A program made the translations under genes and the position numbers. Below are positions 14,919 to 44,719 of a stretch of 47,820 bases of DNA, piece after piece (position 1 is the stretch's first letter; each line of letters begins with the position of its first letter). The notes beneath the pieces are model-generated. The model saw only the letters and a program-made list of their open reading frames with translations, was not told the origin of the DNA and made no database searches. The DNA is taken from positions 1-47,820 of the forward strand of contig CAZBPC010000018.1 in the NCBI GenBank assembly GCA_964493715.1, read 5' to 3'. This DNA comes from an uncultured archaeon. GTDB taxonomy: Archaea > Asgardarchaeota > Lokiarchaeia > Sigyniarchaeales > SOKP01.

Positions 14919-15935
14919 CTATTTCTCCCTCCATTCTACTCCACACTGACCACATTTGTATTTCTTTCCATAAACTCGCGGATAGTCTAAAATCACGTTG
15001 CTCTTATCAGTACTCTCGTGGATACTCATTTTTTGTTCATTTCCGCACTTTGGACAAATCCGTCGACCCTCAGTTTTTTCAATCGTAAGCAATGAATCAT
15101 CTATGGCTCCAGGTATTCCTGGTGATGCGCTTGAAGCACTTGTTGATTTTACATCTGCAATTTCTGCTTTTAAATCATCAGGAGTGATATCTTTGACTAC
15201 TGATTTAAATTCCGGCTCTATAGCGTCAGCCATTATATCAGCAGCTGTATCTGGCTCTAATTCTGATTCTGCTCTTAATTGATAAGCATCCGATTCCTTG
15301 TAATTTTCGCCTTTCGCTAAAGCTGCAAGAAATTCAGCATCATCTCCTTCTTCGAAAATCGTTTCATTTTGAGAACCCGCTCTATCTGCATCAATTTGCC
15401 TTGCCCATTGTCCCGCTTTTACTTTTTCCTTGACATTACAAGCCTTCCCCTGCCAAATATAGACTTTATTTCCTAAGTCCAATACATAACTATCTTCAGT
15501 ATCTAGACTCTCTTTTTTATAAGGAACTTGTACCATCTTCATGGAATTAATTCCCTCAAATTCCTCAGATGATACTCTATAAAGTACATTAATATGTTCT
15601 GCAAACTGAGCATAATCTCCTGTTACAACATCTTTTAACATAGTTTTAGCTAAATTTTTTTCCACAATCTTCATTGTGCCCATTTTATTTATTGCAGTCA
15701 TAAAGTCGCTAGATTCATGATTTTGATCAACGGTGATTATTTTAGCAGCTCCGCCCCTTTGTTGATCTAAAGTCCTAGCTTCTGCTGCTCCGACAGTTTT
15801 TTCATCTACAGAGCATTTGGCTCCGATCCAAACGTATATAGTTTTATCATCATCGATGAGATAGACATCTCCCGTGGAAAAGATTGGTTTATTTACTTCT
15901 TGTAATTGCCCTTGATTGATCATATAAATTTTCAT
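14919..15935 (-). CDS. Two-domain gelsolin-family protein with acidic linker and C-terminal zinc ribbon
   Basis: Two repeats: GDVYLIDDDKTIYVWIGAKCSVDEK...TVDQNHES..F and EDSYVLDLGNKVYIWQGKACNVKEK...FEEGDD.EFL. C-terminal CPKC...CGQC. The ATG at 15935 is preferred over the TTG at 15947. Confidence 0.85.
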   Translation of the reverse strand: MKIYMINQGQLQEVNKPIFSTGDVYLIDDDKTIYVWIGAKCSVDEKTVGAAEARTLDQQRGGAAKIITVDQNHESSDFMTAINKMGTMKIVEKNLAKTMLKDVVTGDYAQFAEHINVLYRVSSEEFEGINSMKMVQVPYKKESLDTEDSYVLDLGNKVYIWQGKACNVKEKVKAGQWARQIDADRAGSQNETIFEEGDDAEFLAALAKGENYKESDAYQLRAESELEPDTAADIMADAIEPEFKSVVKDITPDDLKAEIADVKSTSASSASPGIPGAIDDSLLTIEKTEGRRICPKCGNEQKMSIHESTDKSNVILDYPRVYGKKYKCGQCGVEWREK

Positions 15936-16025
15936 ATTATTTCCCAATTAAATTTTAAAAGAAACTTACTTAGTATATAAAACTCAATCTTTTTAAATAA
16001 TTAGAAATGAATAAGAAAAAATAAT

Positions 16026-19872: not shown

Positions 19873-21909
19873 TTAATCTATATCAAACATACCTGAATAA
19901 GGTTCGAGAAAATGATTCTGACACATGGGACATGAATTATATTTTGAGAGCCATGCTGCTACACAAAGATAATGATATGTACTTCCACAAAACGGACAAG
20001 TAATAAGTTTATCTTTAGCAAAATTAATAAATTGGTGACAAACAGTGCACTGCACATCTGAAACTGCAATCCCTTGCTTTGTTTTAACTTTATTAGATAA
20101 AATTTCCTCAACCTTAGCTAATTCCACTTGATATAGTCCTAAACTTGAAGTTAAGTTGTTTAATTTTGCATTTAATTCTGTAATCCTTTCTCTTAATTCA
20201 TCCTCTGTCAATTTTTCAGCGAGAAATGAAGATAAGGCAAAATTTATGGGCAAACCCTCAAAATTTTCAGATTGTTTAGTAATTTCAGTGATTTCCGCAA
20301 ACAAAATAGATTCTTCATCAATTAAATCTTTAAAACTTTTAAATATTTTATTCAATAAAATAGTGAGTAGGAAGGTCAATTGTTGTTTTTTTCTATAAAA
20401 ATTGTCCTCCCAATGTTTAATAAGTTGATATGTATCGATATTTCGAAACTTATTTCTATCTATCTTCTCATAGATTTGGGATTTGATAATTTCGATTTTT
20501 GTCTTGTAGTCTCTTAATATTTCTTTTATTTTCTTAAGCTGGGGTAATTCTTCCCTAATTATGACAGAAGTCTTATCCTCATAATCACTCATCATGGCAT
20601 TAACTTCCAGTATCTTGGAATCAACAAATGTTCTTAATTCAACACGCAATCCCTCATCTTTTACACTTGTAAGATATGTCTGATATTCTTCTTTTCTACG
20701 TAATAATTCATCATTTAATCGTGATAATGTTTTTTTTAAGGTTTCTGTAATATTTTCATACGGTTTCAGGTATTTGTCAAATCTTAATACCCAGGTATCT
20801 ATCTCATCAATATTTGACGATATTGCATCTACTTTTTCTCTATAAGAATTAATTATTTTCACAAACTCATCTGTCGAAGTACCCTCAATTTGATTTAAGA
20901 GATTTTGAAGTTTTTTATCTATTGATAAAAAATAATATTCAATCAATTTTGGTAGAAATTCAGAAAATTTTTGTTGAGTTAATGATTCAAAATTAAAATC
21001 TTGTTTTTCCTCAAGTCTGTGTTTTTCATCATATTGTTTAACTTCATTAATGAGTCCTTCTAATTTATCCTCGATTAAAGAGACTATGAAAGGGCGCGTT
21101 TTATCTTTTAGATTTTGCACCACCTCCTTTCTTTCCAGTATGTTTATAAATTCTTCACTGGAATAATCTGCAAAGACATTATTTTTATACATCAAATAGA
21201 TAAGATCCGAATAGACTAATTCGTGATTCTGGTGATTTTCAATAAAATATTGAAAGAGTTCATTGAAATGAAAAGTAGGTAACGGTTCAGATCCTTTTTT
21301 CTTAACTTTTATAGGATCTGATTCAGATAGAGATCGTAAAAATTCAAGGGAACCCTTAATTTCATCCCATTTTTTCAATTCTAAGATTGATTCATTAAAT
21401 TGAAATCCTAAATTTTTAATCTTACTTGCTTGAATCCATAAGAATATCTCATCATCATATTGTTTTTCCACTTTATAGATAATCTTCTCAAGATATTGCC
21501 TTATCATATCACATTTTTTAAGCATTTCTGTGATAATTGTGAGGAAATCATCAAGAAATTTATTCTTCTTTAAAATTCTCTTTATGTTCCTACCATTAGC
21601 GGTGAGATTTGTTAAGTTTTGAGAAATAATTTTAAGTTCTTTTACAAGTTCAGATTTTAAATTATAGTAAAGATTCTTTGAACTTCTGAGTAAATAATCA
21701 TCAACAAATTGTTCTATTTGAGTAAGATATTCCTGATAAAACTCCTGGTGTTGTAGATGGAAATATTTCTTGAGGTAATCATTGATTTCACTTTCCTCCA
21801 CGTTTTCTTCCATAAATCGCGATAACTTCCTTTTTACATCAAGAATCTCATCTATAGTAAAACCTTTTATCTCTCTGGTATCATTAAACTTATTATTGAA
21901 AAGTAACAT
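19873..21909 (-). CDS. Coiled-coil protein with C-terminal C4HC3 RING-like finger (putative E3 ligase)
   Basis: CTVC-x13-CPFC-x4-H-x2-C-x10-CPMC with Trp four residues after the sixth ligand, preceded by a long helical region. Confidence 0.75.
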   Translation of the reverse strand: MLLFNNKFNDTREIKGFTIDEILDVKRKLSRFMEENVEESEINDYLKKYFHLQHQEFYQEYLTQIEQFVDDYLLRSSKNLYYNLKSELVKELKIISQNLTNLTANGRNIKRILKKNKFLDDFLTIITEMLKKCDMIRQYLEKIIYKVEKQYDDEIFLWIQASKIKNLGFQFNESILELKKWDEIKGSLEFLRSLSESDPIKVKKKGSEPLPTFHFNELFQYFIENHQNHELVYSDLIYLMYKNNVFADYSSEEFINILERKEVVQNLKDKTRPFIVSLIEDKLEGLINEVKQYDEKHRLEEKQDFNFESLTQQKFSEFLPKLIEYYFLSIDKKLQNLLNQIEGTSTDEFVKIINSYREKVDAISSNIDEIDTWVLRFDKYLKPYENITETLKKTLSRLNDELLRRKEEYQTYLTSVKDEGLRVELRTFVDSKILEVNAMMSDYEDKTSVIIREELPQLKKIKEILRDYKTKIEIIKSQIYEKIDRNKFRNIDTYQLIKHWEDNFYRKKQQLTFLLTILLNKIFKSFKDLIDEESILFAEITEITKQSENFEGLPINFALSSFLAEKLTEDELRERITELNAKLNNLTSSLGLYQVELAKVEEILSNKVKTKQGIAVSDVQCTVCHQFINFAKDKLITCPFCGSTYHYLCVAAWLSKYNSCPMCQNHFLEPYSGMFDID

Positions 21910-34405: not shown

Positions 34406-35446
34406 ATGAAAAACCCATTCTTGGAATTTTATCATGTTCCAAACACAAAAGAATTATTGGATATCGCCTTCAAACGAGGAATGAAAAGTTCCGCTCAAGT
34501 ATCGAAGAATGCTCCCATTCTCTTAAAAGCAAAAAAAAAGGAACGTAAACGAATAAACGTAGTGATTGAAGAGTTAATTGAGCGAATTCTAAAGATAATT
34601 AAGAGTGTTCCCATGATTGAAGAATTACCCGATTTCTATCGGGAATTAGCGTCTTTGCTTGTTGATGTTGATGAATTAAGGCTTACATTAGGAAAATTGA
34701 ATGGGATATTACCCATACTTAGTCAGGTTGAAAGGGATAGTTTTAAATCGCTCTCGAAAATCGAAACACCTAAGGAAGCAGATAGTATACGTCGTTCGGT
34801 ATTTGGAAGAGTTTCATCTATTTTAAGAAAACAAAATGAAAATCTTGAATATTTAAATAATATCAGAGGAAAGTTAAGAAAAATACCCTCTATTGATTAT
34901 GAAATGCCTTGCGTTGTATTTGCAGGTTATCCCAATGTAGGAAAGAGTAGTTTAGTAGTTAATGTATCAACAAATAAGAAGATTGAAGTTCAAGAATATC
35001 CATTCACTACAAAAGAATTAATTTTAGGACATTTACATATTGAACGCAAATTTGATACGATCAAACTTCAATGCATGGACACTCCAGGTATCTTAGATAG
35101 ACCAATGTCAATGCGTAATAATATTGAAGCTCAAGCAATTTTAGCATTAAGATTGATCTCTGATTTAATTGTGTTTGTATTCGATCCAACTCCCGCTTGT
35201 GGGTATTCCATTGACTCTCAAATTGATCTCTATAAAGAAATAAAACAGAATTTTACGCAAGATGGAAAAATAGACATGTTAATAATTATGAACAAGAAAG
35301 ATTTAGCAAGTCTGACTGAAATCAATTACTTGAAAGAAAAATTAAATTTAAATGAAGGAGACTTTTTCATGACAAACGCTTTAACAGGAGATAATGTAGA
35401 TAAGTTAATATTTTATCTCAAGCAGAAGTATGAAAATAAATCCTAA
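34406..35446 (+). CDS. NOG1-family GTPase (large ribosomal subunit biogenesis)
   Basis: N-terminal helical domain (LPDFYREL), GYPNVGKSS, YPFTTK, DTPGILDRP...RNNIE.QAILAL and NKKD. Confidence 0.92.
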   Translation: MKNPFLEFYHVPNTKELLDIAFKRGMKSSAQVSKNAPILLKAKKKERKRINVVIEELIERILKIIKSVPMIEELPDFYRELASLLVDVDELRLTLGKLNGILPILSQVERDSFKSLSKIETPKEADSIRRSVFGRVSSILRKQNENLEYLNNIRGKLRKIPSIDYEMPCVVFAGYPNVGKSSLVVNVSTNKKIEVQEYPFTTKELILGHLHIERKFDTIKLQCMDTPGILDRPMSMRNNIEAQAILALRLISDLIVFVFDPTPACGYSIDSQIDLYKEIKQNFTQDGKIDMLIIMNKKDLASLTEINYLKEKLNLNEGDFFMTNALTGDNVDKLIFYLKQKYENKS

Positions 35447-41605: not shown

Positions 41606-41743
41606 TATTTTATTTGATTATTTGCCTAGTTTAATGTTAATCTTTACTTATTTATCGAGAAAAGGAATAATTTATAACGAAATTCTTAATAAATGATAAT
41701 CATCTATAAATTTACGATAATTAAGGTTATAACCGAGAGGTGA

Positions 41744-42781
41744 ATGTTGCAAGTAGAAGAGAGTTATCGATTGACGCTCCAAACGAAATTATTCGGTTGA
41801 AATTGTAAAGTAGACTCCAATAAGTTAAATGAACTTCTTAATAACGCTGGTTTGGTTGGAGATATAGAAGATTCTGCAATAATTCCCGTACCAAATTCAG
41901 ATTTAGTAATGGTAAAAAATATCGACATCTTTACACCAATCATCGATGAACCAGAAATAATGGGTGAAATCGCTGCTGCTAATGTAACTAATGATGTATT
42001 TGCATTAAATGTTCTAGATATTTCGGGAATGCTGATATTTCTCGGTATGAAAAAAAATATGCCTATGAGAATCGCAGAAGGGATATTGAAAGGTATCCGA
42101 AATTTTATTGAAAATAAGATTGATTCAAAAGTATTAGGAGGGCATACTATCTATTCTGAATGGCCTTTGATCGGTGGGGAAGCAAGTGGATTTGTTGATA
42201 AAAGCAAAATCATTAAAAAGGATCGTGTAGAATCTGGTGATACATTAATAGTCACTAAACCTATAGGAAACCAAGCAATCATGGCTGCTTATCGTCTCCA
42301 AAAAAACAATCCCGACCTTCTGAAATCTTATTCTAAAGCTGAAATTGATGAATCTATTGATTTAGCTGTAGAATACATGACTTTACCATTACGTGACGTT
42401 GTAAAAGCTATTCATTCTTACGATGATGTATCTTTTATCCATTCAATGACAGATGTGTCTGGCTTTGGTCTATCTGGTCATCTAAAGGAAATGCTTCAAA
42501 ATTCAGATCTTTCTGCAAAAATCACAAAAGTTCCTATTTTTAAGCTCACTCAAGAATTATCATATGATTTCGGTTATAAATTTGATGAATGTGAAATGTC
42601 TGAAACCGCAGGGGGTATGTTACTTGCGGTTGATAACAAGCACGCTCAAGAGTTTTCTGAAAGGCTTGAAAAAGAATTTCATGTACTTAATTGGATAATT
42701 GGATCAATCGATAACCAAAACGATCCTCGACGTGTTCGTGTTTCAAAAAACGTTGAATATGTCGAAATAACCACAATCTAA
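41744..42781 (+). CDS. selD: Selenophosphate synthetase, selenocysteine-containing (UGA at 41798-41800), paralogue 1
   Basis: Extended N-terminus MLQVEESYRLTLQTKLFG-U-NCKV, in frame with the 41852 ORF. SD GAGGTGA at 41737-41743 (start ATG 41744 or TTG 41747). Motifs EDSA, DIFTP, GGHTI, TKPIG, TDVSGFGLSGH and ETAGGML. Confidence 0.93.
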
Positions 42782-42853
42782 CAATGTTAATGATATAAGC
42801 TAAAACACGCTAGGTGAATGCTTATTGAAAATTCCGGTGCAATACGGCATTGT
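42781..42853 (+). promoter_or_regulatory. 3'-UTR SECIS element of selD paralogue 1
   Basis: ATGA(42790-93)...GA(42827-28) core, stem ATAAGC/GCTTAT, unpaired AAAA, mini-stem CAC/GTG, basal stem ACAATG/CATTGT. Conserved in the second copy. Confidence 0.85.
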
Positions 42854-42883
42854 AAGTATCTTCTTTTTTTACTATAAAATTGT

Positions 42884-43210
42884 TTACTTATTCTTAAATC
42901 TAGCATTATTAATTAATGTGGGATTCAAGAATACATTTTGACACATTGGGCATGAATTATGCTCCATGAGCCAAGAAGACACACATAAATTATGAAATTT
43001 GCTCCCACAAAAGGAACATTTAATAGTATTTTTTGTTCCCATTACGATAAAATTATGACAAATCGTACATTGAACCTGTTTTTCTTTAGATATCACCGCT
43101 GTTTTTAGTTTTTTCCCACAATTAGAACAAAAATTTGGTAATGTTCCATTAAATGTTCCCAATTTTTTACCACAATAGGGACAATAGTTCAATTTATATC
43201 CTGTCAACAA
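42884..43210 (-). CDS. Zinc-ribbon plus C4HC3 RING-like finger protein
   Basis: CPYCG...FCSNCG, then CTIC-x13-CSFC-x4-H-x2-C-x10-CPMC. Confidence 0.8.
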   Translation of the reverse strand: MLTGYKLNYCPYCGKKLGTFNGTLPNFCSNCGKKLKTAVISKEKQVQCTICHNFIVMGTKNTIKCSFCGSKFHNLCVSSWLMEHNSCPMCQNVFLNPTLINNARFKNK

Positions 43211-43547
43211 GAAATCACTCTAATCATAATTCAAATTTAAATATCCTGTAATAATTTAGTAGAAATACACCCTAAAAAATGATACCTAGTCCAATTTTTC
43301 ATTATTACCAATATCTCCATGAAACTTTTAAGATAAATTTCATATCGATATTTATATCAACTAGAGTTTTAATCCTCTCAATAACTATAGATTAGGAATT
43401 TCTATTACGTGAAAATATCCTTTTTTATCCGACCTATCGAAATTATTAATAAATACGATTAAAAAATTAAATAAACATCCCATAATTATTACAGAATAAT
43501 GGTAGGATATAATAAAAAACAAAAAAATGTAAAGTATGAGGTGAAAA

Positions 43548-44573
43548 ATGGAAAAAAATGATTACAGGCTCACAAAACAAGTAAAAATCTATGGATGATC
43601 ATGTAAACTTAGTTCAGATCAATTAAATGAATTATTGAAGAGAACGGGTTTATATAAAAATTATGAAGATGCTGCTGTCGTTTCTATTCCAAATACAGAT
43701 CTAGTTCAAGTAAAAAATATAGACATTTTTACTCCGATTGTAGATGAACCCGATATTATGGGTGAAATAGCTGCTTGTAATGTAACGAATGATATTTTTG
43801 CTATGAATGTTCTAGATATTTCAGGAATGCTCGTGTTTTTAGCTATAAATCCGAACACACCAATGAATATCGCAGAAGGAATCCTTAAAGGAATTAAGCG
43901 CTTCATGGAAAAAAAAATCGATTCCAAAATAGTGGGAGGTCATACAATTTACAGCGAATGGCCATTGATCGGTGGGGAAGCAAGCGGGTTTGTAAATAAG
44001 GATTCAATCATAAAGAAACAAGGTGTAAAAAAGGGAGATAAATTGCTTTTGACAAAACCAATTGGATTACAGGCTGTAATGGCTGCATACCGAATGCTAA
44101 AAGATTTTCCTGAGATGTTAGAGGGGTATTCTCATGAAGAACTTACAAAATCTATTGATCTTGCGATTAAAATTATGATTACTTCAAATCGAGGAGTTGT
44201 TAAAACAATACACTCATATGAAGATTTCTCCTTCATTCATGCAATGACTGATATTACTGGATTCGGGTTATCTGGACATTTAAAAGAAATGCTACTAAGT
44301 TCAAGATTATCAGCTATAATCGATGCTATCCCATCAATTAAACTCTCTAAAGATCTTTCCAATGACTTTGGATACAATTTTACTGAGTGTTTATGTTCAG
44401 AAACTGCTGGTGGAATGCTTTTATCTATTGATCCCAAAAAAATAGAAGATTTTTCTAATGCTCTCTTTAGTAATGGTATCTCGAATTGGACTGTTGGTCG
44501 TATTGATAGTGTCGAACATGAGCTTGTTAGGATATCGGATAAAGTTAAACAGATCGAAATCACTAAAATATAA
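43548..44573 (+). CDS. selD: Selenophosphate synthetase, selenocysteine-containing (UGA at 43596-43598), paralogue 2
   Basis: MEKNDYRLTKQVKIYG-U-SCKL, in frame with the 43635 ORF. SD GAGGTG at 43538-43543. Same SelD motifs as paralogue 1. Confidence 0.93.
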
Positions 44574-44574
44574 A

Positions 44575-44642
44575 GATGTCAATGAAATAAGCTAAAACAC
44601 GTGTGTGGGTGCTTGTTGAGAATACCGTTGCAAAACGGCGTC
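44575..44642 (+). promoter_or_regulatory. 3'-UTR SECIS element of selD paralogue 2
   Basis: ATGA(44582-85)...GA(44618-19) core, stem ATAAGC/GCTTGT, AAAA, CAC/GTG mini-stem, side hairpin CCGTT-GCAA-AACGG, basal stem GATG/CGTC. Confidence 0.85.
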
Positions 44643-44719
44643 AATTTTTTGCCAAATATCCTTTTTTCTCATTTGATTTAATTAAACCATTTTAATTTTT
44701 AGTTTAATGCTCGGGAGTA

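Follow-up and report, generated by a model that had tools for sequence, protein, structure and literature searches.

The window, that is the whole stretch of 47,820 nt that was analysed, carries two selD genes, selD-1 and selD-2. These probably encode two selenophosphate synthetases read through UGA that derive from a tandem duplication and are not fully redundant, with selD-1 being tuned differently. In the scheme proposed, selD-2 (motif U-S-C-K) would be the ancestral and indispensable enzyme supplying SepSecS, and selD-1 (U-N-C-K) would be a derived, dispensable partner possessing the whole catalytic set, with a remodelled shell around its Sec loop and metal sites. As selD-1 appears to keep the catalytic set with this shell remodelled, the copies are read as not fully redundant. 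It is most likely that selD-1 still produces selenophosphate, and the difference in tuning may lie in the selenium donor, in affinity or in regulation. Each gene is predicted to carry its own eukaryote-like three-armed SECIS right after the stop codon and to be transcribed separately.

A preliminary description of this DNA had held that both selD calls are N-terminally truncated, that each frame extends through a TGA to a start preceded by GAGGTG, and that the genes stand nearly in tandem. All of this was borne out. Standard ORF calling (table 11) yields only 41852..42781 and 43635..44573; with TGA read as U, the starts become ATG 41744 and ATG 43548 and the N-terminal peptides are YRLTLQTKLFG-U-NCK (selD-1) and YRLTKQVKIYG-U-SCK (selD-2), as described. 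The blocks GGHTIYSEWPLIGGEASGFV and GFGLSGHLKEML were likewise found in both proteins, which are identical at 208/338 aligned residues (62%). Both genes are encoded on one strand and are separated by 766 bp, within which an opposite-strand ORF is located. The features of the locus are as follows:

41737..41742, + strand: GAGGTG Shine-Dalgarno-like motif of selD-1, 1 nt ahead of ATG 41744
41744..42781, + strand: selD-1, 345 aa, motif F-G-U-N-C-K; predicted derived Sec-containing selenophosphate synthetase paralogue
41798..41800, + strand: in-frame TGA, predicted Sec19 of selD-1
42864..42870, + strand: T7 run after selD-1, likely archaeal terminator
42884..43210, − strand: RING/zinc-ribbon ORF, 108 aa, between the selD genes and convergent with selD-1
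43538..43543, + strand: GAGGTG Shine-Dalgarno-like motif of selD-2, 4 nt ahead of ATG 43548
43548..44573, + strand: selD-2, 341 aa, motif Y-G-U-S-C-K; predicted ancestral-type Sec-containing selenophosphate synthetase
43596..43598, + strand: in-frame TGA, predicted Sec17 of selD-2
44645..44650, + strand: T6 run after selD-2, likely terminator, with a second T6 run at 44662-44667

A GGTG motif was present no more than 20 nt from the start in 39/42 selD-1-type genes. The intervening ORF matched zf-RING_2 with 29.4 bits (cut-off 27.3) and is kept at the same place in three near relatives at 67-76% identity. In another genome (G001) the RING gene is kept and selD-1 is absent. This ORF is outside the selD system.

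The reading of UGA as selenocysteine was examined across the Lokiarchaeal family. The codon at the site is TGA in all 116 selD genes that hold it (40/40 selD-1 and 76/76 selD-2-type). The twelve codons 5' of it keep their amino acids with many synonymous changes over the same 116 genes; the Leu at position −9, for example, is encoded by TTG, TTA, CTG and CTA. By this measure, the coding conservation that runs through the in-frame TGA exceeds chance, and we infer that Sec is actually inserted at both UGAs. The truncated frames are exactly what standard ORF calling yields, and it could be argued from this that the UGAs are real stops with starts at the downstream TTG codons (41852 and 43635), leaving proteins that lack the Sec loop, or that one copy is a pseudogene. 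This is extremely unlikely and already disfavoured, as the 5' extension keeps its protein sequence through synonymous changes, contains the equivalent of the essential K20 and is headed by the Shine-Dalgarno-like motif, covarying SECIS elements lie behind both genes, omega is about 0.1 and no further stops occur.

These predicted SECIS elements begin 1-4 nt after the stop codon, in the 3' UTR, and share the same three-armed architecture:

42782..42852, + strand: selD-1 SECIS, beginning 1 nt past the stop codon
42782-42786 / 42848-42852: basal helix of the selD-1 SECIS
42790-42793 and 42827-42828: AUGA and GA of its core
42795-42800 / 42820-42825: helix II
42802-42805: AAAA bulge
42806-42808 / 42814-42816: ministem
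42834-42847: side hairpin
44575..44642, + strand: selD-2 SECIS
44582-44585: AUGA of the selD-2 SECIS
44625-44638: side hairpin of the selD-2 SECIS, with a GCAA loop

In an alignment of 105 sequences (A2), 95.7% of the cells were paired compared with 87.4% after shuffling. None of 500 shuffles reached the observed value, and slid controls gave 26-52%. Both sides had changed in 18 of the 19 pairs, including changes on both sides of helices II and III (98.9% and 93.8% paired). Within AUGA, the G and A did not vary among the 105 sequences, nor did the A of the 3' GA, whose partner G was almost invariant. When the two 3' UTRs were folded as single sequences, z-scores of −0.29 and −0.10 were obtained; folding energy alone is therefore uninformative and the structure rests on covariation. 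Both elements show the features of Asgard type II eukaryote-like SECIS, namely an AUGA...GA core, an unpaired run of A above helix II and a ministem, and their predicted role is to direct Sec insertion at the upstream UGA. A covariance model (R1) scored 85.7 bits at selD-1 and 81.8 bits at selD-2, and these were the only two elements to score well across the whole genome, with a model that is too selD-specific to detect the SECIS of other selenoprotein genes. Two weak R1 matches (E 0.05 and 0.43) were dropped as chance, the preceding ORFs having no in-frame TGA. Scanning the window against Rfam at gathering thresholds returned no match, and none of the Rfam models caught these elements.

It should also be noted that in two relatives only (G096 and G094) selD-1 has a 31-nt insert immediately 3' of the Sec codon. 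The insert shows bulge-helix-bulge intron geometry of the HBh' class, with central helices GUUG/CAAC and GCUG/CAGU, bulges AAA and AAU and a hairpin of the intron that stacks on the helix; there is no exon-exon helix h. It was seen in contigs of one DNA sequencing run, another run representing a relative without it, and no RNA run was found in a search of sequencing runs for the insert locus. It is a candidate intron, the geometry of which predicts its removal from RNA.

The machinery for Sec was searched for in the genome, as the preliminary description had proposed, and tRNA-Sec, SepSecS, PSTK and a SelB-like factor were all present. The tRNA-Sec was called by ARAGORN and scored 59 bits against RF01852 (threshold 47), and SepSecS scored 476 bits against TIGR03531 (cut-off 224.85). 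PSTK (TIGR03574, 169 bits) and the SelB-like factor (TIGR00475, 233.8 bits) were below their cut-offs of 290.5 and 242.25, but each was the top family for its ORF. The combination that marks the archaeal/eukaryal Sec-decoding trait (tRNA-Sec, SepSecS, PSTK and EFSec/SelB) thus occurs in one genome. In addition, an in-frame TGA was found in 4 of the 11 FlpD/MvhD-domain matches of the genome. A link to tRNA 2-selenouridine synthase (SelU) was rejected for the Lokiarchaeal family: TIGR03167 was over its cut-off in 0/133 family genomes, with the positive controls detected.

Both products belong to the SelD family. Against TIGR00476 (cut-off 125), selD-1 and selD-2 scored 179.3 and 195.1 bits, the AIRS (PF00586) and AIRS_C (PF02769) domains were both over their cut-offs, and the best solved relatives of the two proteins were SelD/SPS, down to an E-value of 5.5e-36. 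The best full-length model was NF010705/PRK14105, the Sec-type SelD of Methanococcales, with 260 and 281 bits over residues 3-345; both proteins resemble this family in length (about 345 aa) and architecture and fall just below its cut-off of 291. SelD converts ATP and selenide to selenophosphate, AMP and Pi. The preliminary description had placed the U at the catalytic Cys/Sec-x-x-Lys site of SelD, and the alignment agrees, with U and K at the positions of E. coli C17 and K20. The equivalents of E. coli C17 (as U), K20, D51, D68, N87, D91 and D227 are kept in 42/42 selD-1 rows (40/42 for the Sec column) and in 74/74 selD-2-type rows. The last five of these, which we take to be metal and ATP ligands, are also invariant in 6/6 outgroup rows. 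The Sec site aligns with Thr29 of human SPS1 (G-T-G-C-K); an SPS1-type duplicate has a non-Sec, non-Cys catalytic residue there, but both genes of the window have TGA. These features suggest that selD-1 and selD-2 are intact selenophosphate synthetases, with presumed enzyme activity.

A selD-1-type gene was present in 58/94 genomes of two genera (g1, 22/41; g22, 36/53) and in 0/39 genomes of 11 other genera, and across the phylum 59 genomes had at least two selD matches, of which 56 belong to one of these two genera. The gene order is HEAT-selD1-selD2-CinA where both copies occur and HEAT-selD2-CinA otherwise, so that selD-2 occupies the HEAT-selD-CinA position common to the single-copy genera. 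The extracted single-copy loci all read U-S-C-K (23/23). In trees from 'quick' IQ-TREE searches, the selD-1 clade (42 rows) had an SH-aLRT of 99 and a support of 99-100 across trees, with a stem of 0.19-0.29. It branches at the base of the family, and a tree joining all rows of the two genera was not rejected (AU p = 0.21); the gene tree leaves the duplication undated. On the selD-2 tree, 14 changes of selD-1 state were counted. The selD-1 gene has been lost many times, and therefore cells do well without it. Judged from gene order and phylogeny, selD-2 is the apparent ancestral copy and selD-1 a derived accessory clade, and the pair most probably arose by in-situ duplication at the HEAT-selD-CinA locus within one Lokiarchaeal (Promethearchaeota) family.

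The possibility that two strains were merged in one MAG and each supplied one copy had to be considered, as such 'apparent paralogues' have been warned of for Loki metagenomes (Mariotti et al., 2016, PMC4989117) and the contamination of this genome is 3.85%. However, a single contig carries both copies, separated by 766 bp, the ordered pair was found on single contigs in 38 extracted genomes, including closed or near-closed ones, and the copies are merely 55-65% identical within a genome. An assembly or binning artefact is hereby refuted for practical purposes; the pair is real and old.

Five differences are fixed in selD-1, namely N20, S44, A79, L131 and L216. Three changes stand beside catalytic residues, S to N after the Sec, A to S after the D51 equivalent and C to A before the N87 equivalent, this nearness to the active site being judged by alignment and by the residue roles known for SelD. 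N20 is found in 40/40 and L216 in 42/42 selD-1 rows; at the same sites the other copies have S in 74/74 and N in 70/74 rows, and S and N are also present in 6/6 outgroups. Asn was not found after the Sec/Cys site in any of the 72 diverse SelD representatives covering it. L216 replaces the conserved Asn of the '..LN..' helix (N214 in selD-2), which is invariant in 4/4 distinct solved SelD/SPS sequences and present in 127 of 142 diverse SelD representatives, five of which have Leu. With Leu at this site, selD-1 could have lost or altered its canonical activity; it is also conceivable that the five or six fixed differences are neutral or compensatory. Both copies are under strong purifying selection, the median omega over 95 genome pairs being 0.082 for selD-1 and 0.105 for selD-2. 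Gene conversion was rejected as an explanation for the identical protein blocks: with a dS of 2.7 between the paralogues there is no sign of it, the codon itself is shared at just 88 of 197 positions with the same residue, and no identical run is longer than 20 nt.

With a derived accessory selD-1, changes fixed near catalytic residues and purifying selection, functional divergence of the two copies is plausible, and they may divide the labour. The subfunctionalisation suggested in the preliminary description fits the clade-specific substitutions near the active site and the accessory distribution of selD-1, and stands as a suggestion drawn from sequence. The same description had raised a heterodimer as the other option. 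SelD is a homodimer with its active sites at the subunit interface. An obligate or preferred selD-1/selD-2 heterodimer giving an asymmetric enzyme would agree with the adjacency and constant order of the genes and the retention of Sec in both copies. It is nevertheless very unlikely, as 24 of the 62 selD-2 genes of the two genera in the extracted sample are from genomes without selD-1, so that selD-2 works without its partner; the window pair is, moreover, split by a convergent gene and co-translation is therefore not enforced.

Plain redundancy, in which isoenzymes of the same activity are kept because more SelD, or SelD from two promoters, is useful to a cell rich in selenoproteins and the fixed differences are neutral, is unlikely but draws on several observations. 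All catalytic residues are retained in both copies, purifying selection is similar, selD-1 is frequently lost without loss of the Sec trait, and 'a more active role in Sec biosynthesis' is one of the options listed by Huang et al. (2024, PMC11227280). On the other hand, an omega of 0.08 across 58 species and the fixation of N20 and L216 are not expected of a neutral duplicate, and the long stem of selD-1 followed by slow change is what a shift in constraint usually leaves behind. Neofunctionalisation, with selD-1 outside Sec synthesis as a source of activated selenium or sulfur for another pathway or as a selenium sensor or carrier, is quite improbable. The change of a near-universal Asn to Leu, a U-N-C-K motif absent from 72 diverse representatives and the patchy, accessory distribution would speak for it, and NCBIfam holds SelD relatives of AIR-synthase fold that are products of duplication and now have different roles involving selenium or sulfur (TIGR04369 'fusion_not_SelD' and NF038049 'SelD_rel_HyperS'). 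Unlike these, selD-1 is unfused, has no such neighbours and scores far under their cut-offs (74.5 versus 700 and 47.5 versus 250) while being above that of SelD. It also retains the ATP and metal ligands, Sec and Lys; the search with TIGR03167 gave no second selenium trait in the 133 family genomes, and no selenium-related gene was found adjoining the pair. SenC of the selenoneine clusters is a further SelD-like paralogue with another role, and by analogy these three families might serve as a model for what selD-1 could have become. The preferred reading remains that of two selenophosphate synthetases with selD-1 tuned differently.

Multiple selD genes have been reported before in this group. 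Huang et al. (2024, ISME J, PMC11227280) counted 51 Loki- and Thorarchaeia organisms with two or more, so the bare finding is already known; they called multiple Sec-containing SelD rare among prokaryotes, guessed at either a more active role or some new function, and described type II eukaryote-like SECIS on selD. The phenomenon and the group are those seen here. Their text gives it one sentence and the count, in which a tandem origin, two clades, U-N-C-K, the change of Asn to Leu, the accessory distribution and selection figures were not found; part of this may appear in Fig. S3 and Table S3. What appears new here is the subfamily anatomy of selD-1 and selD-2, as deduced from sequence. The Loki SPS of Mariotti et al. 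(2016, MBE, PMC4989117) is, like both copies here, Sec-containing with one UGA at the homologous site, and its 'distinct' lokiSECIS, also located in the 3' UTR, has a type II-like form in which the main stem is short and an additional stem stands at the apex. No mention was found, in the description of lokiSECIS, of the basal helix and side hairpin by which the present elements form a three-way junction. That paper describes one gene and treats multiple SPS matches as possible 'apparent paralogues', whereas the copies here are true paralogues on one contig. The SECIS of Methanococcales is, as given by Huang et al. (2024, PMC11227280), of the archaeal type and unlike the selD elements here. In metazoans, an ancestral SPS gene with Sec was duplicated and subfunctionalisation was proposed (Mariotti et al., 2015, Genome Res, PMC4561486), the Sec of the derived SPS1 being replaced by Thr, Arg, Gly or Leu and selenophosphate synthesis being lost. 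Compared with this, the retention of Sec in both duplicates is unusual, as had been noted at the outset: the TGA is kept by the derived copy in 58/58 genomes, including the two with the insert.

With a duplicate that has kept its Sec, a predicted SECIS of its own and strong constraint in dozens of species but has changed around its active site, the selD pair is a natural experiment on the role of the residues around the Sec loop. To our knowledge, selenium enters all known selenium-dependent biology through SelD, which is the one selenoprotein family that Asgard archaea share with eukaryotes. Should their functions prove to differ, the two copies would provide the first example among prokaryotes of a pair of specialised Sec-dependent selenophosphate synthetases. 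It is a tentative and rather doubtful further step to regard selD-1, with its U-N-C-K motif and its Leu for Asn, as a new lineage-specific Sec-enzyme subfamily with a separate task and not as a spare SelD; such a task may involve a different selenium donor, a product other than Sec-tRNA or a partner subunit that gates SelD. Were this so, some Lokiarchaea would run two selenium-activation channels.

Table 11 ORF calling placed two frames at 41852-42781 and 43635-44573, both short at the N-terminus. With the in-frame TGA of each read as selenocysteine (Sec), these extend to two selD genes whose products are 62% identical (208/338). The preliminary description had reported this near-tandem pair; on re-reading the sequence, its coordinates and motifs were all correct, and the peptide blocks it quoted were found in both proteins. 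Other genes of the window, which holds typical Asgard 'eukaryotic signature' genes, are also listed.

Features of the window (position, strand, description)
14919-15947, - strand, gelsolin-repeat protein
19873-21909, - strand, 678-aa protein with a RING finger at its end
34406-35446, + strand, NOG1-type GTPase
41737-41742, + strand, GAGGTG ahead of the selD-1 ATG, by sequence reading
41744-42781, + strand, selD-1, 345 aa, ATG start once TGA is read as Sec
41798-41800, + strand, TGA, Sec codon of selD-1 (U19), by read-through translation
42884-43210, - strand, RING-finger/double zinc-ribbon ORF between the selD genes, 108 aa, convergent
43538-43543, + strand, GAGGTG ahead of the selD-2 ATG, by sequence reading
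43548-44573, + strand, selD-2, 341 aa, ATG start once TGA is read as Sec
43596-43598, + strand, TGA, Sec codon of selD-2 (U17), by read-through translation

Both proteins contain AIRS and AIRS_C domains, and their closest solved structures are SelD/SPS without exception. Their scores against the curated SelD model TIGR00476 exceed its cut-off of 125 (selD-1 179.3 bits, selD-2 195.1 bits), and those against the Methanococcales-type model NF010705 fall narrowly under 291 (260 and 281). The U of each aligned to E. coli Cys17 and human SPS1 Thr29, and the motif Lys to K20. Residues matching D51, D68, N87, D91 and D227 of the E. coli enzyme, which we take to have catalytic roles in SelD, were invariant in all copies examined. 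Only these two selD copies were detected by tblastn in the 3.68-Mb, 100% complete genome. A T-run lies 3' of each gene and the ORF between them is convergent, which suggests that the two are transcribed as separate units. Among relatives, only the nearest (G006, G022 and G001) have this 108-aa ORF at the same position, at 67-76% identity. It matches the selenoprotein family MbdU weakly (22.5 bits; cut-off 600), apparently through common Cys spacing alone.

The Sec-site codon was TGA in 116 of 116 genes of the family, and the amino acids of the 12 codons preceding it were kept through many synonymous changes, which shows that the 5' extension is coding. A search for Sec machinery had been proposed in the preliminary description, and tRNA-Sec, SepSecS, a SelB-like GTPase and PSTK were all found, the last two under their curated cut-offs. 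The tRNA-Sec was detected by ARAGORN and by RF01852 (59 bits vs 47), with SepSecS (476 bits) adjoining. The GTPase, 3 kb away, had SelB as its best family (233.8 bits, ~100 bits over EF-Tu), and PSTK was the best family of its ORF (169 bits).

Sec gene cluster on contig C26 of the same genome
C26:11292-12746, - strand, SelB-like GTPase
C26:15797-15889, tRNA-Sec
C26:15961-17262, SepSecS

This cluster (C26:11292-17262) fits inside 6 kb, and other contigs carry PSTK and the selD pair. Of the genome's 11 FlpD/MvhD-domain matches, 4 contain one or two in-frame TGA codons, suggesting that the Sec trait is in use outside SelD. It should also be noted that ARAGORN, at default settings, found only 16 tRNA genes in this genome rated 100% complete, in agreement with a 2026 preprint whose available part describes Asgard tRNA genes as heavily loaded with introns.

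The 3' UTRs of selD-1 and selD-2 are 82% identical across ~110 nt. An alignment of 105 of the 113 distinct selD 3' UTRs, leaving out 8 of deviating form, supported four SECIS helices. The basal helix begins 1-4 nt past the stop codon, the core consists of AUGA/GA with helix II, and a ministem tops the A-rich bulge, as in the type II form already published. A side hairpin, its loop often GNRA-like (GCAA, GUAA, GAAA-type), follows the core and precedes the 3' strand of the basal helix. Paired cells amounted to 95.7%, against 87.4% in shuffled and 26-52% in slid alignments; changes on both sides were seen in 18 of 19 pairs, and none of 500 shuffles matched any measure.

SECIS helices located by covariation
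42782-42786/42848-42852, + strand, selD-1 basal helix
42834-42847, + strand, selD-1 side hairpin
44575-44578/44639-44642, + strand, selD-2 basal helix
44625-44638, + strand, selD-2 side hairpin

Side hairpin and basal helix surround the type II element known from the literature, making the selD SECIS a three-way junction, and all four helices covary. This arrangement was not found in the available text of Huang et al. (2024; PMC11227280) or Mariotti et al. (2016; PMC4989117). Run on the whole genome, the SECIS covariance model scored well only at the two selD sites. The deviating form (8/113; loci L103, L111, L112, L106, L108, L110, L087:1436-1526 and L092:1427-1517) has a longer helix II and another apical sequence with the side hairpin still there, and occurs in the genera g15 and g21 as well as behind two selD-2 genes of g22.

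Within the family of 133 genomes, a selD-1-type gene was present in 22 of 41 genomes of g1, the genus of the window, and in 36 of 53 of g22. The 39 genomes of eleven other genera had none; 34 of them carry one selD copy, and in 5 none was found. Across the phylum, 330 genomes reach 80% completeness; SelD was found in 203 of them, with two or more matches in 59 (56 in g1 or g22, 3 in one other family). Gene order at the two-copy locus is conserved (HEAT-repeat gene, selD-1, selD-2, and a CinA-like gene on the opposite strand), and single-copy genomes and other genera show HEAT, selD, CinA. The extracted single-copy loci were of the U-S-C-K type in 23 of 23, with the HEAT gene upstream and no selD-1 between in 19. 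In the near relative G001 the RING gene remains but selD-1 is gone, a deletion scar. Extra stops lie inside the matches of two selD-2-type genes of relatives, G123:C1:758857-759903 (two TGA; cut at 148 aa as extracted) and G049:C18:1118-2134 (one TGA, one TAA), and may represent a second Sec codon, a pseudogene or sequencing error.

A SelD phylogeny, also proposed in the preliminary description, placed the U-N-C-K copies in one clade (SH-aLRT 99-100, stem 0.19-0.29). The other 72 rows formed a second clade with support of 95, one genus being unresolved on the trees. Read at face value, this topology dates the duplication to around the base of the family and implies numerous losses. A tree joining all g1 and g22 rows was not rejected (AU p = 0.21), however, and we claim no more than the g1/g22 split as a minimum age for the duplication. 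Mapped on the selD-2 tree, selD-1 presence required at least 14 state changes, a figure blending real losses, assembly gaps and tree error.

Fixed sites set selD-1 apart from all other copies and outgroups.

Fixed sites (selD-1 numbering)
Residue after Sec: selD-1 N20 (40/40); others Ser (74/74), outgroups 6/6
After the D51 equivalent: selD-1 S44; others A/C
Before the N87 equivalent: selD-1 A79; others C
Site 131: selD-1 L131; others V
Site 216: selD-1 L216 (42/42); others N

SelD of human, Leishmania, E. coli and Aquifex all have the Asn at the site-216 equivalent, as do 127 of 142 diverse representatives; Asn following the Sec/Cys site occurred in none of the 72 covering it. Past its long stem, selD-1 changes slightly slower than selD-2 (mean pairwise identity 77% and 74%; median omega 0.082 and 0.105 over 95 pairs), and of the 703 genome pairs compared, 520 showed it to be better conserved than selD-2. 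Gene conversion as the source of the identical peptide blocks was ruled out, since dS between the paralogues is saturated at 2.7; the blocks reflect selection.

TGA is present in all selD-1-type genes. In 2 of 58, both from g22, a 31-nt insert lies directly behind it, between TGA-A and AC-TGT (G096, L083:1611-1641; G094, L084:1982-2012). The inserts share length and place and differ in sequence; an independent contig set confirmed the insert as DNA, and one relative was without it. A 4-bp helix, with two unpaired letters per side, joins the last six letters of the exon to the last six of the insert. A 3-nt bulge and insert hairpin are stacked on this helix, one pair of which is C-G in one species and U-A in the other, a compensatory change. 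This geometry fits a putative HBh' bulge-helix-bulge (BHB) intron, a form counted as canonical in the available part of the 2026 preprint on Asgard tRNA introns. The remaining ORF is intact and the branch length ordinary. A disrupted gene and translational bypassing are rival readings. A full-text literature search listed a paper on the pre-mRNA intron of crenarchaeal Cbf5 (pseudouridine synthase) and turned up no description of such mRNA introns in Asgard archaea. If spliced, the insert would be a protein-coding BHB intron in an Asgard archaeon.

The available text of Huang et al. (2024) reports two or more selD genes in 51 Loki-/Thorarchaeia organisms, describes multiple selD as rare in prokaryotes and suggests a more active role or new function for SelD there. 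In that of Mariotti et al. (2016), the SPS of Loki is a Sec protein whose SECIS is distinct and type II-like, so the core of the preliminary description is already published. The tandem in-situ origin with its ancestral/derived split, the U-N-C-K and Asn-to-Leu signature, and the accessory distribution and selection figures were not found in these texts; the supplementary tree and tables of Huang et al. may bear on all of these.

That the pair is an assembly artefact is hardly credible beside the conserved order of the two-copy locus, and truncated proteins, as the ORF calls would have it, are very improbable beside the coding 5' extension. A SelD-1/SelD-2 heterodimer would suit the close pairing of the genes and appears improbable, many genomes having selD-2-type genes only. 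A new, non-Sec task for selD-1 would suit its fixed substitutions and is unlikely: the catalytic equivalents and the TGA are kept, SelU, as a sign of a second selenium trait, was above cut-off in 0 of 133 family genomes (positive controls scored), and no selenium-related neighbour gene was found near the pair. Plain redundancy, which would suit the patchy presence of selD-1, is a somewhat better candidate and still doubtful in view of its low omega. In the preferred reading, selD-2 would be the ancestral enzyme supplying selenophosphate for SepSecS, and selD-1 a derived second synthetase, dispensable yet constrained, in which the shell surrounding the Sec loop is remodelled. On these sequence comparisons, selD-1 most likely still makes selenophosphate and would differ in donor, affinity or regulation.
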